Positions 3,937 through 21,307 of a stretch of DNA of 21,682 nt are shown here, in pieces; the first letter of the stretch is position 1; the number at the start of each line of letters is the position of its first letter. The DNA comes from a virus (taxonomy: Duplodnaviria; Heunggongvirae; Uroviricota; Caudoviricetes), in IMG/VR virus record IMGVR_UViG_3300028797_000009, positions 64,001 to 85,682 of that record. One strand, written 5' to 3'. A program made the translations under genes and the position numbers. Under the pieces are notes generated by a model. It ran no database searches, was not told where the DNA came from, and worked only from the letters and a program-made list of their open reading frames with translations.

Positions 3937-4343
3937 CAATATCGAGAGCATTTGTAAAATTACTAGAAGATAAAGGTTGCGGTGTATTTGGGCAAAACAT
4001 CTTTTTGTATCGAGTGCCTAATTCGTTGAAAACACAAACTGAACTCTATTGGGTAATACCAAGTGGGGGGATGAAAGTATCCACCAATAAGACAGGTGAA
4101 GCCGTTAAAGCGTATAATTTTCTGATTTATTTCAGGAGTAATGAAGCAAAGACGGTGGATGAAACATTATCTGCATTAGAAGAAATGTTGAACTGTTCTG
4201 GCTGTGTGGAATTAGAAGGTTTCGAGCTGGTCGACATAAATACAACCCAATTCCCTGCCGACCAAGACATCGATTCTGAAAATCGTATGGTTGGGCTTAT
4301 CCAAGTTCAACTATGGGTTTATAAGGGTTGTAATAACAACTAA
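3933..4343 (+). CDS. Tail terminator protein (putative)
   Basis: ATGA overlap, 136 aa, immediately before the tail tube gene. Confidence 0.65.
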   Translation: MTISRAFVKLLEDKGCGVFGQNIFLYRVPNSLKTQTELYWVIPSGGMKVSTNKTGEAVKAYNFLIYFRSNEAKTVDETLSALEEMLNCSGCVELEGFELVDINTTQFPADQDIDSENRMVGLIQVQLWVYKGCNNN

Positions 4344-4369
4344 AAAACAAAAGGGATAAAAAATAAATT

Positions 4370-4867
4370 ATGGCATTAGTAAAAGGTCCATTCACTATTA
4401 AGTGGGGTAGCAATACTCTTCTTGATGTTAGCGAACTTGGCTTCAACTATGATGTAGCCTCCAATGACTACGAAACGCTTGATGGTCGTACCTACACTGT
4501 CGAGGGTGCTATTACGGCTTCGGTTGACCTCACTCTCTTGGCTTCCGATGTTTCGGCACTTGCTACGATTTTCCCACAGTATTTTGTGGCTAAAGGTGGC
4601 ACGCTTTCTACTGGCGAAACTGTTACGAGTGATGATGGTGCAATTGATATTGTTGCCGCTTCTTGTGACATGTCTGCTTCTAAGTACGATTTGGAGATTA
4701 CTAGCTGTACTGGTGAAACCACTCGTCTTGTAAAGGCTCGTACTAGCCTTTCTGCGATTGATTTTGCTGATAATGCTGTTCGTACTGTTCAGGTAACCTT
4801 CCGTGGTGAGCCTGGCACGGGCGAGGGCGTTGTTCAGTTCTTCAACGGTATTCAAGCCGCTTCCTAA
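4370..4867 (+). CDS. Major tail (tube) protein
   Basis: 165 aa beta-rich acidic protein with highly-expressed-type codon use, followed by a terminator, then chaperones and the tape measure gene. Confidence 0.75.
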   Translation: MALVKGPFTIKWGSNTLLDVSELGFNYDVASNDYETLDGRTYTVEGAITASVDLTLLASDVSALATIFPQYFVAKGGTLSTGETVTSDDGAIDIVAASCDMSASKYDLEITSCTGETTRLVKARTSLSAIDFADNAVRTVQVTFRGEPGTGEGVVQFFNGIQAAS

Positions 4868-4871
4868 TCTT

Positions 4872-4907
4872 AAAAGTCCCCTCTTCGATTTGGAGAGGGG
4901 CTTTTTT
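4872..4907 (+). terminator. Intrinsic terminator after the tail tube gene
   Basis: AAAAGtCCCCTCTTC-gattt-GGAGAGGGGCTTTT followed by a T tract. Confidence 0.85.
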
Positions 4908-4914
4908 GTTGTCG

Positions 4915-4923
4915 TGCTATAAT
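4915..4923 (+). promoter_or_regulatory. Extended -10 promoter (TGcTATAAT) restarting transcription for chaperone/tape measure genes
   Basis: Exact TGnTATAAT directly after the terminator. Confidence 0.65.
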
Positions 4924-5046
4924 TTACTTAGTTAAAAATGTTATTTTTCTCGATGAGATGATAAATGTATCGTCTTTGAGATTAAAAGCCCGTAGAGGCG
5001 AAAATAGAGGGGAATAACGCTAAAATATATGAAGGAGTAGAACCAA

Positions 5047-5376
5047 ATGAGTTCACGATTAAATCTAAATGAAAATACTTCGGAGGTATTCGAGTTCACT
5101 ATTGGTGGTTTGGATTATGATATGAAATATCCAACTCTTGAAGAAATTGAGCCGATTACTGAACTTAGCAAAAAGCGTGAAGTTTTGAGTAAAACTGATA
5201 CGCCAGAGGCAGTCGAGGAGATGGATAAAATTGATGAAAAACTTACGGAAGAGTTCTATAAGTTAATTATTCCTGTTGGCCACGACACTCCGATTGCCGA
5301 TACGCTTCGTAAACAACCATTCCCTGTGGTTAAAGCGTTTAATAAAATGGTTCTTGAACAACTCTCTGCGGAGTAA
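5047..5376 (+). CDS. Tail assembly chaperone (gpG-like)
   Basis: GAAGGAG SD, 109 aa acidic helical protein between the tail tube and tape measure genes. Confidence 0.7.
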   Translation: MSSRLNLNENTSEVFEFTIGGLDYDMKYPTLEEIEPITELSKKREVLSKTDTPEAVEEMDKIDEKLTEEFYKLIIPVGHDTPIADTLRKQPFPVVKAFNKMVLEQLSAE

Positions 5377-5380
5377 TTAG

Positions 5381-5680
5381 ATGAATCCGGCTAATGACGA
5401 GCCGAGGAGAATATCGGTAAAGCCCGTAAGACCGGTAAAAGAGCAAAAAACTTCCAATCGGGAATTATGGGCTACGATATGTTACTATTATCCGCAATAT
5501 ACTCTTGAAGATGCTAAAAGATTAAGTATTAGAGATATACGGTTATTGTTAAAAACAGCATCAAAGAAAGAGGCTGAAAAATATCTGCAATTAACGCAGA
5601 TTGTGGCTTCTCCACACACGAAGAAAGGGCAAGGCGTAAAACAATTAACTAATTATTATAAAAAACAAATAGGTAATTAA
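5381..5680 (+). CDS. Second tail assembly chaperone (gpT-like)
   Basis: LWATICYYYPQYTLED..LS pattern resembles gpT regions, and it lies directly before the tape measure gene. Confidence 0.6.
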   Translation: MNPANDEPRRISVKPVRPVKEQKTSNRELWATICYYYPQYTLEDAKRLSIRDIRLLLKTASKKEAEKYLQLTQIVASPHTKKGQGVKQLTNYYKKQIGN

Positions 5681-5685
5681 ACGAT

Positions 5686-8600
5686 ATGCCAACCCACGGT
5701 GGAACTGTTAGATGGATAATTGAGGCCGATGACTCTCAATTTAATCAAACCTTAGATAATGTAGAAAAACGAGCAGAAACTACGGTAAAAGTCCTTAACC
5801 GTCAGGATACTAGTTTTTGGGGTTCTCTAAGCAAAGGGGCAAAAGAAACTTCTTTTTCTATGGGAGAGTTAGCGTCTAGTCTGGCTAATGTCGGATGGAC
5901 TGCTTTTAATCTTGGTGCGACCTCTGCTGTCACGGCTTTGACTAGTCTTGTGAGAAAAGGTGTTCAGGCAACTGATTTCTTGGAAACCTCTCGTATCGCT
6001 ATGGCTGGTCTTACTGGTTCCGTTGAAGCAGGTAATGAGGCGATGTCGATTGCCGCTGATTATTGGTCTAATAACCCATTTCAGCGTATTGATGTTACGA
6101 GTGCGACAAAACAATTAGTCCAGTTTGGTAGAAATACTGGTCAATTGGCAGGCGATTTGAAAATATTGGGCGATGTGTCTTTGTCGTCTGGTGTTAAGAT
6201 TGATGAATTAGCAAGGTATTATGCTCGTGTGTCTGCGTCTGGCCGTGCTATGACGATGGACTTGGAGATGATGTCCGACCGTGGTGTTCCAATTTATAGG
6301 GAATTGGCAAAGCAATTAAATACAACTACACAAGGTGTTCGTGAGTTAGCATCGCAGGGGAAGATTGGTTTTGAAGAATTCCGAAAGGCGATGGAAAGTT
6401 CAGTCAATCCAGAGGCTATGGAAGCCTATGAAAATACGCTTGCTCGCCAGATGGATAGGTTTAAGGGTTCTTTGCAACAATTAGGCGCCGCTTTGGCTGG
6501 CTATAAAGTTGTAAATAATGAAGTTATTATTTCCGAGCAGGGTCTTGAAAAAGCGTGGATGAGGTTAGTAAAGACTCTTGCTACTGCTTTGCGTTCCGAT
6601 AAATTGAAGGAGGCATTAACTACTCTTGGTGAAACTCTCGCTAAAATACTCGATAAAGTATCGGCAATTATTCCAAAAGTTGTAGATTGGTTAGCAAAAG
6701 TCGTAAAGTTCTTGTCTGAAAACAAAGCCCTTCTTGCTGGTGTCGCTGGTGTAGCCACCTACTTTGTTGGAGGGTTAGCGAGTAAGTTACCGATTGTGGG
6801 CGGAGTGATTGAAAAAATCACGGGCAGTGCTAAAGGTCTGGTCAACGTATTCACAAATTTGTTTAAGAAGAACCCGTTGTTAGCCGTATTCCTCGGGCTT
6901 TTAACTACTGGTCTTGTTACGGCTTATAAGAATAGTGAGAATTTTAGAAATTCTATAAGTCGGTTGTTCTCTGCTCTTGGTAAATTGCTTCAAAAGATTA
7001 TCCCTATATTCCAAGCATTTGTGGATATTATTGTAACGATTGTTTCGTCTGATGAATTTATATGGATAATGGAAACCCTTGCTAATGTTTTGGCTTCAAT
7101 AGCAGAGGCATTGGCGAGTATTCCGACAGATGTCTTAACCTCTTTGGTCACGGCATTTTTGATGTTTAGTCTGTTGGATTCTAAACCGATTCTCGGATAT
7201 GCTGCGGCGATTATGTATATTATCGCAGTAGTAAAGAAGTTTGGCCCAGCAATGATTGAGGGTATTAAAAATACTTTTGAAAATGTTGGGACGGCTATTT
7301 ATAACGCTGGTAAGAACTTTATTATCGGTTTCCAAAATGGTATCAATGAAGGTGTTAAAGCTGTCTATAATTTCTTAAAGCAAATTGCTGAAACGATGGT
7401 TGCCACCTTCCAGAAAGCGTTGGGTATCCATTCTCCATCTACTGTGATGGCGGAGCAAGGCAAATATGTAGTGTTAGGTCTTGCCGAAGGTATCACGAAT
7501 AATAAGTCTGTCGCTCAAAAAGCGATGGATATGCTTGCTAGTGATATTCTCCAATCAATTGAAAAAATTATTTCAAATAAGATTGATTTTGGGCTTCTTG
7601 ATTATCCGAAGCAATATCAGGAATGGAAGAAAGTTTCGAAGATGTTTGCTGTTGGCTCTCAGCAGTATCAAACGGCAATCGAGAAAATGGAGGAAGCAAG
7701 GAAACAGGCTAATCTTCAGATTCTTTCGCTCCAAAGAGATTATAATGATACGCTTGATAGCACAATTAGCAAGATTGCTAAGATGTATGGCTTGTTTGAT
7801 AAAGTTGATACGTCTGGTGGTAAGAGTTCAACTGATATTATTTCTGATTTAGACCAACAAGTTGCCGCTCTTCAGAATTTTGCCTCAACGAAAGAAGCGT
7901 TAAATAATATTGGTCTTGAGACTGGTCTTGTTGATGAACTTCAAGAAATGGGGATTGATGCCGCTCAAGAATTAGCAACGATTGCTCAAATGAGTGGGGA
8001 TGAAATCGCTAGATTAAATGAGTTATGGTTGGCAAAACAAGAACAGGCCAATCGTGCCGGTATTGAAGAAGTAAAAAATCTTAAAGAAAAGACTCTTGAC
8101 CAAGTTGATGAAATTCGTAAAGGCATTGATGGTGAAACTATCGAGTTACAAGATGTCGGTGGTAGATTAGTAGAAAATATTGCCGAAGGCATCTATGGTG
8201 CTATGCCGACGCTCGAAGATGCGTTTGCCCAAATGGGAACGTATATGGCAAAGGCGGCGAAGGAACTTGGTGGCTCTGGTTCTGGTAGTACTGGTGGTAT
8301 AACTCCCGATGATATTGCTGACCCTCTTAAAAATACTCTCAATGAGGCCCAAAATAGCTTAAATAAGTTTGCCGAAGATTTTGGTATTAATATGATGAAA
8401 TCTATTGGTATCGGGTTAGTCGGTGGTATTGCTTTGAAGTGGATTGCTCCAAAATTGATTTCATTCTTTAAGGATAAAGTTCTCCATAAAGGAGTGCAGG
8501 ATACTATTGCTAACCAACTTCTTAAATCGGGTATAGGTAAAACCGGTGGGGCTGGTGAATTAGCAAAAGCCGCTCAAGAAAGCAGTAAAACCGCTACTTC

Positions 8601-18063: not shown

Positions 18064-18072
18064 TGGTATAAT
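18064..18072 (+). promoter_or_regulatory. Extended -10 promoter (TGgTATAAT) for candidate sRNA-1
   Basis: Exact TGnTATAAT just after the terminator, with no + strand ORF downstream. Confidence 0.65.
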
Positions 18073-18077
18073 TAACT

Positions 18078-18138
18078 AGTAGCGCTACTTATACCTCCTT
18101 TCTTTGAGAATAGTCCTCTTTGTAGGGCTATTCTTTTT
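18078..18138 (+). ncRNA. Candidate anti-SD small RNA 1 (~60 nt)
   Basis: Promoter 18064-18072, AGTAGCGCTACT palindrome 18078-18089, TACCTCCTTTCTTTG seed, hairpin AGAATAGTCCT/AGGGCTATTCT (18107-18134) plus T tract. Confidence 0.6.
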
Positions 18139-18376
18139 CGTTGTCAATCCAGTCTTTTGCTTCCTCTACGGTGTCGAATGGTTCGGCTAGAATACGGAAT
18201 TGTCCAGTATCGTCACCTGTTCCTTGTTCTGCAACTGCATAGATTGGTGATTCGTAGAAATCGTTTGTAGTAAGAACTTCGCTGATGGACAATGCGACCC
18301 CTTGTGTGTCGTATGTAGTGAAGTATGACACCTCGTTAGAATGTCTGACTAGAATGTATAATCCTTTATATTCCAT
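18128..18376 (-). CDS. Hypothetical protein (82 aa)
   Basis: GGAG upstream and TAATG coupling. Last gene of an early operon. Confidence 0.6.
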   Translation of the reverse strand: MEYKGLYILVRHSNEVSYFTTYDTQGVALSISEVLTTNDFYESPIYAVAEQGTGDDTGQFRILAEPFDTVEEAKDWIDNEKE

Positions 18377-18627
18377 TAGTGATATGCTCCGACTAATTTT
18401 CCATTATATTCAGATTTTGAACTGTTCCACCAATCCTTTGCTTCGTGGTAAGTTTTGAAAATACCATCTGTAAAATCCTCATTGTATCCAAGAGCGAAAT
18501 CTGTGCATCCTTTTACGCTTTCGCAAAAGATAACATATCCTGTTTCGATTTTGGCGATTTGTGGGGATTGAAAATTACAAGAATTAAATTTTCCAAAAGC
18601 ACCATTTAAGCGTTTGGTTGGTTTCAT
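18376..18627 (-). CDS. Hypothetical protein (83 aa)
   Basis: ATGA overlap upstream and TAATG overlap downstream. Confidence 0.6.
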   Translation of the reverse strand: MKPTKRLNGAFGKFNSCNFQSPQIAKIETGYVIFCESVKGCTDFALGYNEDFTDGIFKTYHEAKDWWNSSKSEYNGKLVGAYH

Positions 18628-19022
18628 TTTGATACGACCTCTCTGAATTTAACGCCCCATACCTTTTCAATCTGGTTAATGATGGAAGAGTATGGACGAG
18701 TTTTGTCTAGGGTTTTAGGGTAATCTTCTGGAAACTCATTTTTGAAGAACTGTCGCCATTGTTGAGCGGTTAATGGCTTAATTTTGAAGGCTGGCTTTTC
18801 TCCTTTTGAATTGCGAACGATGGTGTATTTATGAGATTTGCCACGCTTTGAGATTTTGCCTCCGATGGAACCTGCTGATTTGGCTAGTTCACGATTGGCA
18901 AAAAATCCACCAGTAGTTCCGTTCTGACCTCCGATAGAACCGATTTCCTTGTAGAAGTTTTTACCGTGTAAGCGTTTATTGGTTATACTTGCTTTTTTAC
19001 CCCCTAATTTTGTTCCTGACAT
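18624..19022 (-). CDS. KGG/Con-10-like repeat (general stress) protein with C-terminal extension
   Basis: GTKLGGKKA...FYKEIGSIGGQNG..GGFFANRELAKSAGSIGGKISKRG, with AGGAGGT SD. Confidence 0.75.
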   Translation of the reverse strand: MSGTKLGGKKASITNKRLHGKNFYKEIGSIGGQNGTTGGFFANRELAKSAGSIGGKISKRGKSHKYTIVRNSKGEKPAFKIKPLTAQQWRQFFKNEFPEDYPKTLDKTRPYSSIINQIEKVWGVKFREVVSK

Positions 19023-19670: not shown

Positions 19671-19719
19671 ATTGTTTCTCCTTTCTTTATCTGGGTGGGT
19701 TTTCTCCCCTCCCATTATT

Positions 19720-19780: not shown

Positions 19781-19815
19781 AAAAAACCACCCTCAATTTT
19801 GGTGAGGATGGTTTT
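19781..19815 (-). terminator. Intrinsic terminator (sRNA-2 / SprT operon)
   Basis: Minus strand AAAACCATCCTCA-ccaaaat-TGAGGGTGGTTTTTT. Confidence 0.8.
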
Positions 19816-19847
19816 CCGATAAAAGAAAGGGTAATCTTAATGATTAC
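19781..19847 (-). ncRNA. Candidate anti-SD small RNA 2 (~67 nt)
   Basis: Promoter at 19854-19882, 5' hairpin GTAATC-attaa-GATTAC starting at the predicted +1 (19847), CCTTTCTTTTAT seed, terminator 19783-19815. Confidence 0.62.
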
Positions 19848-19853
19848 AAGCCT

Positions 19854-19882
19854 ATTGTAGTTTGTTTTTTGCCGTGTGTCAA
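19854..19882 (-). promoter_or_regulatory. Sigma70-type promoter (TTGACA-17-TACAAT) for candidate sRNA-2
   Basis: -35 at 19877-19882, -10 at 19854-19859, exact 17-nt spacer. Only ~65 nt to the next terminator. Confidence 0.75.
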
Positions 19883-19957
19883 TGTATAGATGAGTATTTT
19901 ATCGTATTTGGCTGAAAAAGCCGTCAGAAGCCAAAATACGAGGTCTGGTGGGGGATT

Positions 19958-20425
19958 TTACTTAGTTCCCGTGAGCTTGAAGTCCAATAGGTAGTTCGGG
20001 TTAAAATGTCCGTTGCTACAATAGGAGCAAGAATAACGGCGACCTCGACCAACACGGTTGCGAGTGAAGGTGTGTCCACAATGGGTACAGACTGCGTAAT
20101 ATTTTGGTAGAGGAGTAACTATATCTTCCGATGAATAGCATCTTTCTGGTTTTGCTCCAATTTGTTGGCAATAGTGCCTCCAAGTTGAATCGTGTCCGTG
20201 TTTTGCCCCTGCTAAACCGTGGGCAATTTCATGGAGAACGGTGTCTTTTGTGGTTTCCCACGGGTTAAGTTCGGCTAAAACTTTGGAGATGGTGATTAAG
20301 TGAGAACTACAATAGCAAGTGCCATAAGTTCTTTTACCTCTGCTCCAATGGAAAGCCCAATTTTCGCCTAGGTGTTCCTTAATCATCGTGCGTATTCTTG
20401 GTTCTAGGATTTGTAGAGATTCCAT
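19958..20425 (-). CDS. SprT-like zinc metalloprotease with C-terminal Zn ribbon
   Basis: TVLHEIAH (HExxH)...HGHDSTW, CTHC...CSYC. GAGGAG SD supports ATG 20425. Confidence 0.88.
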   Translation of the reverse strand: MESLQILEPRIRTMIKEHLGENWAFHWSRGKRTYGTCYCSSHLITISKVLAELNPWETTKDTVLHEIAHGLAGAKHGHDSTWRHYCQQIGAKPERCYSSEDIVTPLPKYYAVCTHCGHTFTRNRVGRGRRYSCSYCSNGHFNPNYLLDFKLTGTK

Positions 20426-20784: not shown

Positions 20785-20831
20785 ATATTTTCCTTTCTTT
20801 TATGGGAGGTATTATCCCTCCTCCCATTTTT

Positions 20832-20860
20832 ATTATATATGAAAAGTGTTAATAAGTCAA
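20832..20860 (-). promoter_or_regulatory. Sigma70-type early promoter P2 (TTGACT-17-TATAAT)
   Basis: -35 at 20855-20860 (within the last codons of the nuclease gene), -10 at 20832-20837. Confidence 0.8.
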
Positions 20861-21307
20861 TACTTTTTTGATAATTTCTTTTGAAATTAGGTCGGAAATT
20901 TTTAAGAGGTAGCCTTCCGCATTATCTCCCATATCCACTAATTGAGGTTTGGTTTCTCGGATATAACTACGCATATCTACGAGCCAAAAGCCATATAATT
21001 CATTGGATTGGGATAGGTAATAGAGAATATAATCTGCGTGGCTTTTTGCTAGGCAACCAATGTTCCCGCTGGTAGTTTCCTCATAAACGAAGTTGCCGGT
21101 TTTATGGGCTAGTCGGTCGGTTTTGACCTCATATTTAATGACAATTCCACTATGTTTCTCGGCTAGAAAATCTATATCTAGGTCTTGGAAGTAGATATCA
21201 TTGCGAACATCCATTACTGTTTTATTTTGAGAAGATTGGCAAAGAAGTTTATAAACTAACTCCTCCCCTTTTTCTCCCTCCGTTAAATCTTCTTTGAAAT
21301 TTCCCAT
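20849..21307 (-). CDS. PD-(D/E)xK family nuclease-like protein, probably leaderless
   Basis: GEKGE...QDLDIDF...YEVKTD...TGNFVYE motif. ATG 21307 lies 6 nt downstream of a consensus -10. Confidence 0.75.
   Translation of the reverse strand: MGNFKEDLTEGEKGEELVYKLLCQSSQNKTVMDVRNDIYFQDLDIDFLAEKHSGIVIKYEVKTDRLAHKTGNFVYEETTSGNIGCLAKSHADYILYYLSQSNELYGFWLVDMRSYIRETKPQLVDMGDNAEGYLLKISDLISKEIIKKVLTY

Follow-up and report, generated by a model that had tools for sequence, protein, structure and literature searches.

For phages that have no obvious repressor, it is often unclear how the strong early genes are switched off. The locus described here holds a near-consensus promoter that appears to fire into a terminator a short distance away with no gene in between. 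We asked what an RNA made from this promoter could be and which genes it might act on. The window is the whole 21,682-nt stretch of DNA that was analysed, positions 64,001 to 85,682 of IMG/VR record IMGVR_UViG_3300028797_000009, and coordinates are those of the window unless the genome or another locus is named.

The phage and its probable host

The phage genome is 85,682 nt long with a 127-nt terminal repeat, and the record is classed as a complete virus. Searches with the PF00589, PF07508 and PF00239 profiles found no integrase and no tyrosine or serine recombinase in the genome. The best genome matches of the KGG-type gene at 18624-19022 are almost all Saccharibacteria, with the top ones coming from ruminant gut. 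The host is thus probably a gut Saccharibacterium of a ruminant, an assignment based on this one gene family and on a match to the 16S tail. The 16S genes of the host family end in GGATTACCTCCTTTCT followed by AGGG or AGAG and have T where most bacteria have C, just before the anti-Shine-Dalgarno (anti-SD) core (about 62 of 64 matches, L199-L208). Two predicted phage RNAs described below both read UACC at the position matching this T variant.

A predicted small RNA gene downstream of SprT

The unit sits within a block of small minus-strand genes, 3' of a gene for an SprT-like protease and ahead of the promoter of the next operon. Its features are as follows.

19958..20425, minus strand: SprT-like metalloprotease gene (Pfam PF10263, E 3.9e-13), the constant upstream neighbour of the sRNA
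19877..19882, minus strand: -35 box TTGACA of the sRNA promoter, TTG invariant in 12/12 homologues, the -10 box always 17 nt away
19854..19859, minus strand: -10 box TACAAT, with T, A, A and T at positions 1, 2, 4 and 6 invariant in 12/12
19781..19847, minus strand: predicted sRNA of about 67 nt (64-76 nt in relatives), putative +1 at G19847
19831..19847, minus strand: 5' hairpin of 6 bp with a loop of 3-5 nt, outer three pairs invariant and inner three covarying
19820..19830, minus strand: single-stranded seed CCUUUCUUUUA, invariant, anti-SD with a U-rich extension
19781..19817, minus strand: intrinsic terminator hairpin and U run, predicted by folding and kept in homologues

The promoter (TTGACA at 19882-19877, 17 nt, TACAAT at 19859-19854) matches the consensus at 11 of 12 positions, in agreement with the initial annotation. 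Taken alone it is unremarkable, as a window scan at a loose threshold returned 21 such promoters where 23 were expected. The putative start G19847 lies 6 nt past the -10 box and is the first base of a 6-bp stem (19847-19842 paired with 19836-19831, 5-nt loop). A product of about 67 nt with this hairpin at its +1 had been proposed before, and the sequence bears out this layout, with the stem G falling as the seventh nucleotide after the -10 box in 12/12 loci. A 13-base unpaired stretch (19830-19818) separates the 5' hairpin from the 15-bp terminator stem (19817-19781), which has a U run at its end. When folding was assessed, as the initial annotation had suggested, the 70-nt sequence gave a z of -6.1 and 0 of 200 shuffles were as stable. 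No open reading frame of at least 50 aa overlaps the sRNA in the window, which upholds the earlier statement that no minus-strand frame is present.

The descriptor '-10 box, CCTTTCT, terminator' produced exactly two matches in the 85.6-kb genome and 0 in 12 block-shuffled genomes. The two matches are the sRNA at 19781-19847 and a second RNA at about 18079-18139. A consensus terminator scan of the window did not list the minus-strand sRNA terminator, and the terminator is supported by folding and by the 12 homologues. It probably also ends the upstream operon of the 118-aa gene and SprT.

The spacer between SprT and the sRNA promoter (19883-19957, minus strand) is loosely conserved, 80-150 nt long, with a recurring TCTAA..GC..TTTT..CCATATA pattern. 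A separate terminator in this spacer was considered and rejected, as there is no consensus RNA structure among relatives and the spacer is entirely missing in one of them (L118).

Conservation and covariation in related loci

Relatives were collected through homologues of two neighbouring proteins and with one DNA pattern, giving 12 loci (the window and 11 further) from about eight lineages. Their SprT proteins are 49-89% identical to that of the window. The metagenome search with the DNA pattern contributed two true homologues (L100 and L109) among 22 matches. The sRNA unit was found directly 3' of SprT in 12/12 loci with coverage, and it still follows SprT in L115 and L117, where the module is inverted, and in L118, where the spacer is absent. 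The inversion in L115 and L117 (positions 4300-6950 of each) spans the early module in full, with SprT at one end and the second RNA at the other, and both RNA genes keep their places in the module.

The layout of the unit is fixed in 12/12 loci: a TTG-type -35, 17 nt, a -10 box, 6 nt and G. Within this layout all 11 seed columns are invariant; the promoter spacer has 1 invariant column of 17, and the linker and terminator together have 1 of 41. The invariant block extends from 19833 to 19820 and consists of the seed and the adjoining UAC. In the 5' stem 100% of cells are paired (17-51% in slid controls) and three of the six pairs changed on both sides, the covarying cells representing perhaps 2-3 independent events. 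The length of the 5' loop varies (3-5 nt) and therefore fits an RNA rather than a DNA operator. Terminator sequences diverge among the relatives, and every one has a stem of at least 11 bp and a U run. Each homologous RNA folds with a z of -3.3 to -6.4 and leaves the seed open, with a mean unpaired probability of the seed of 0.91-1.0. Together with the stem covariation, this agrees with the initial proposal that the seed is exposed between two stems. Judged from sequence, such a conservation pattern arises when selection acts on an RNA whose single-stranded site works in a sequence-specific way. Because of this conservation and covariation, the prediction of a small non-coding RNA with an exposed anti-SD seed is strongly supported.

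We then asked whether the RNA belongs to a described family. An Infernal search against Rfam 15, another check suggested in the initial annotation, gave 0 matches at the gathering threshold in the window and in four relatives, and none over the sRNA even at E up to 10. The covariance model R1 built for the sRNA detected a single copy in its own genome, and none in the 151 host-family genomes searched. In KGG loci and distant phages it gave no significant match. When viral contigs were searched with exact and gapped forms of the seed, no true homologue came up, the matches being reverse-strand ribosome binding sites (RBSs) or chance, and blastn against 50,697 phage records returned only a weak 32-nt match. 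We consider the sRNA to be a real, previously undescribed RNA family with a predicted function.

Ribosome binding sites complementary to the seed

The seed complement TAAAAGAAAGG is the joint commonest 11-mer at start regions, being present at 9 of 133 called genes, with starts taken from a simple purpose-made gene caller. It occurs 10 times in the genome where 0.2-0.3 are expected; 9 of these are RBSs and 1 is the opposite strand of the sRNA gene itself. About 11 copies of a repeated promoter cassette are spread over the non-virion parts of the genome, and an A-rich extended RBS follows in each. With cassette and virion gene classes defined after inspection, seed matches of at least 9 nt were found at 10 of 11 first genes of cassette promoters versus 6 of 122 others (p 2.5e-10), and at 0 of 36 virion and lysis genes versus 16-19 of 97 others (p 0.002-0.006). 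Part of the match between seed and start sites is built in, because 7 of the 11 seed bases are 16S tail sequence. The invariant UUUA extension of the seed has no 16S counterpart and fits the phage RBS. The 10-mer RBS followed by ATG was found 12 times in 5.4 Mb (five host-family genomes) versus 10 times in the 85.6 kb of the phage, making it about 50-fold sparser in the host family.

Cassettes lie at genome positions 969, 3168, 18782, 19216, 20569, 23718, 34834, 47687, 83748 and 84860 (the last two are window 19748 and 20860). Common to the family are TTTTCATA ahead of the -10 box, a G at +7 and the extended RBS, and a 5' hairpin is often present as well. The cassette leader at genome 969 opens with a GUA...UAC stem, like the sRNA.

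Two candidate targets lie close to the sRNA gene.

20792..20803, minus strand: extended RBS of the 118-aa gene, 12-nt complement, behind the cassette promoter 20860-20832
19680..19688, minus strand: RBS of the 114-aa gene, 9-nt complement, behind the cassette promoter 19748-19720

The initial annotation had named the RBS of the 118-aa gene, at the head of the operon of the sRNA, as the best visible target. The complement of 12 of 12 nt is there (20803-20792), and cofolding this site with the sRNA gave a ddG of -14.3 kcal/mol versus -10.3 for the 16S tail duplex. However, the site ranks best only inside the window. The best seed matches outside it, all at start sites, are 16 nt long at genome 24261 and 13 nt long at 34882 and 47620, and the 16-nt match extends into the 5' stem of the sRNA. 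The 118-aa gene is ahead of SprT only in the closest relatives (L045 and L046) and is missing there in L047, L100, L114 and L116, where SprT itself can carry the same RBS. With the gene missing at this place in most relatives while the seed is invariant, the 118-aa gene is too narrow a choice as the particular target.

The relatives have the same RBS ahead of several genes each. One relative, with a protein of only 71% identity, keeps the 16-nt target site without change, in a gene that has few close relatives. For the top targets the cofold ddG was -13 to -18 kcal/mol versus -9 to -13 for the 16S tail, rough values that are not strictly comparable to ribosome binding. By inspection, the flanks of the seed do not track the flanks of the targets. 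The putative target proteins are mostly unannotated. The product of the 114-aa gene also occurs, at 70-73% identity, in L048 and L049, small phi29-like phages that encode a type B DNA polymerase and a connector, and therefore moves between unrelated phage groups; the covariance model did not find the sRNA in these two loci.

A second predicted RNA and the virion module

The second match to the descriptor has a layout like that of the sRNA.

18064..18139, plus strand: second RNA gene, with an extended -10 without -35, a short palindrome, a 16-nt seed and a terminator

This gene lies 3' of the holin terminator with no gene downstream, is present in 11/11 loci with coverage and has an invariant 16-nt seed reproducing the host 16S tail. 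The 5' element forms an almost perfect, nearly loopless palindrome and could serve for dimerisation or be a DNA site. The converging early mRNA 3' end is probably fully complementary to the second RNA.

The promoter type of the second RNA, an extended -10 without -35, dominates the virion module, and the sRNA at 19781-19847 has a -35/-10 promoter. Virion genes have weaker SD sites than others, with a median of -6.4 versus -10.1 kcal/mol (p 1e-6). Extended -10 promoters without -35 run through the virion module (genome 39854-82064), where several genes look leaderless or weak-SD. The 152-aa gene at window 20849-21307 also appears leaderless.

A proposed mode of action

From these data we consider it probable, with real room for doubt, that the sRNA is a phage-encoded trans-acting anti-SD RNA with which the phage dampens the translation of a class of its early genes. 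Host RNA polymerase of the sigma-70 type would make the 67-nt RNA from G19847. The 5' hairpin and the terminator, a structure backed by covariation, would shield both ends and may make the RNA stable, leaving the 11-nt seed exposed. By its computed complementarity the seed could bind the extended RBS UAAAAGAAAGG found at the head of the strong promoter cassettes and of a few small genes besides. Its pairing would reach four bases beyond the upstream limit of the 16S tail duplex, which would let the sRNA compete with the 30S subunit, and in this way it may block 30S loading and repress translation. A few targets ending in AGAAAGGGUA could invade the 5' stem as well. As the stable sRNA accumulates it would limit or end the production of early, mostly uncharacterised proteins, and the virion and lysis genes, with their weak SD sites, would escape. 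No Hfq above the cut-off was found in 41 host-family genomes, and pairing would therefore be unaided or would use another chaperone.

Some points weigh against this reading. The seed and the RBS are both invariant, hence there is no co-variation between seed and target to support pairing. In addition, the sRNA promoter is early-type like those of its targets, which leaves the timing unaccounted for.

The second RNA, with its virion-module-type promoter, might speculatively extend the shut-off to AGGAGG-type sites later on. A broader scheme can be drawn from this, although we hold it only tentatively and think it more doubtful than not. The form of the RBS would sort phage genes into translational classes, and two anti-SD RNAs, one with an early-type and one with a late-type promoter, would act as a protein-free timer that silences the early classes and leaves the ribosomes to the weak-SD virion genes.

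Comparison with described systems

The csRNAs of the CiaRH regulon of Streptococcus are chromosomal RNAs with CiaR-box promoters, an unpaired anti-AUG and a conserved nonamer (PMC3091779). Like the phage sRNA, they combine a strong promoter, two stem-loops with an unpaired SD-complementary region in between, and an Hfq-free host (PMC3091779); two stem-loops flanking an unpaired anti-SD region were also found in the phage sRNA. In contrast to the csRNAs, the phage sRNA is phage-borne, has an ordinary -35/-10 promoter and appears to target the phage's own genes. A search for a CiaR box in place of the -35 gave 0 matches in the window with one mismatch allowed, the canonical -35 being conserved instead. 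There is also no conserved unpaired anti-start-codon triplet, as CAU or CAC occurs in the 5' hairpin of only 7 of 12 homologues and is absent in 5.

In LhrC1-5 of Listeria monocytogenes and the UCCC sRNAs RsaE, RNAIII, SprD and FsrA a CU-rich single-stranded stretch blocks the SD (PMC4132741). The phage sRNA likewise has a CU-rich, exposed, SD-complementary seed between two stem-loops. The 5' stem of LhrC opens on pairing (PMC4132741), and such opening is predicted for the phage sRNA with some targets. The phage sRNA differs from LhrC in having one site instead of three, in being single-copy, in serving a phage and not a host regulon, and in showing no sequence similarity (Rfam negative). The UCCC motif is absent from its invariant block UACCCUUUCUUUUA.

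Among phage RNAs, the c4 antisense RNA of the temperate phages P1 and P7 blocks translation around the RBS of a phage mRNA and controls the message of the ant antirepressor (review PMC12197685). The likeness lies in a phage RNA pairing around a phage RBS. In the phage studied here the seed reads a generic RBS common to a dozen unlinked genes, no integrase or recombinase was found, and the Rfam C4 RNA model did not match the sRNA. T4-type phages have promoter-stem-loop cassettes (PeSLs), which are present in multiple copies and finish with an SD and a start codon (PMC2839356). The putative target genes resemble them in standing behind repeated sigma-70 promoter cassettes that include a stem-loop and an SD site, whereas the sRNA is single-copy, ends in an anti-SD and a terminator, and has no conserved antisense start codon.

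A literature search confined mostly to journals outside subscription found no description of a phage RNA aimed at the shared extended RBS of its own gene class, and nothing relevant on phage anti-SD sRNAs or CPR-phage sRNAs. In unrelated phage contigs of about 42 kb (L001:590-692; also L004, L009 and L013) the strand opposite a gene carries a consensus promoter and, about 24 nt on, CCTTTCTTTT followed by a strong terminator. This element is possibly an analogous anti-SD RNA.

Alternative explanations

The conserved seed could instead act in cis, inside a longer RNA, as an insulator or a feedback tail. The 3' end of the 118-aa/SprT mRNA would fold back on its own RBS, or read-through would lock the RBS of the next gene, in which case only the next cassette's own promoter would give protein. 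Consistent with this, the unit always lies between two promoter cassettes, its terminator probably serves the SprT operon too, and modelling of a read-through RNA gave P = 0.99 for pairing between the seed and the RBS of the 114-aa gene. We nevertheless regard a cis element as unlikely. Its own promoter with fixed spacing to the +1 hairpin, kept in 12/12 loci, is not needed by a purely cis-acting element, the gene downstream of the sRNA differs among relatives, and the second RNA, on the other strand, has no downstream gene to lock. The resemblance to 16S rRNA might suggest another role, in which the sRNA serves as a decoy, drawing a binding or cleaving protein (a host defence nuclease or a ribosomal protein) away from the anti-SD tail, and does not pair with mRNA. 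The sRNA reads GAUUACC-CUUUCU, near the host-family tail GAUUACCUCCUUUCU, and its outer three stem pairs are invariant, as for a protein site. However, it is without the central UC of the tail, its GAU changes with the stem (AAC and GGU in relatives), and the added invariant UUUA fits the phage RBS and not 16S. The second RNA fits mimicry better, and for the sRNA we find a decoy role quite improbable.

A trans-acting RNA might also be directed mainly at mRNAs of the host, or of co-infecting phages with the same strong RBS. The 10-nt site is present at some host-family genes, including those for the DNA polymerase III beta subunit, RNase Y and ribosomal protein L5 (single genomes), G-U pairing permits weaker binding at many AGGAGG sites, and other phages of a similar kind use the same RBS (L041-L044, L048). 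With only 1-3 sites per host genome, in different genes in different genomes, and with the phage's own genes the first that would be affected, we judge host shut-off or an attack on competitors to be very unlikely. It is hardly credible that the unit is a vestige or a DNA element, that is, an emptied promoter-terminator cassette, an inverted copy of a leader, a repressor operator or a plus-strand mini-gene with RBS, ATG and six codons. The phage does have about 11 repeated promoter-leader cassettes, which are PeSL-like (PMC2839356), and the plus strand of the window reads RBS-ATG-MITSLL-stop. An invariant seed beside neutral-looking spacers and covariation in the stem show selection; the spacer of the palindrome is variable, and the unit is single-copy in the genome. 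The plus-strand mini-ORF was rejected, as the antisense start codon is missing in 5 of 12 homologues and the peptides differ. As a present function this explanation is largely refuted, whereas an origin from an inverted leader is possible.

Implications

If the sRNA acts in trans as proposed, one 67-nt RNA that reads a shared RBS motif would bring a dozen gene cassettes, scattered and exchangeable as they are, under joint control, and a new gene inserted into a cassette would be controlled automatically. The sRNA would also be a compact RNA scaffold, apparently Hfq-independent. Were the two-RNA timer to prove true, the phage would have a developmental switch made of RNA, and the two would be, to our knowledge, the first known regulatory RNAs for a phage of Patescibacteria. 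For phages of the ultra-small Saccharibacteria, the locus gives an initial view of how genes are controlled.
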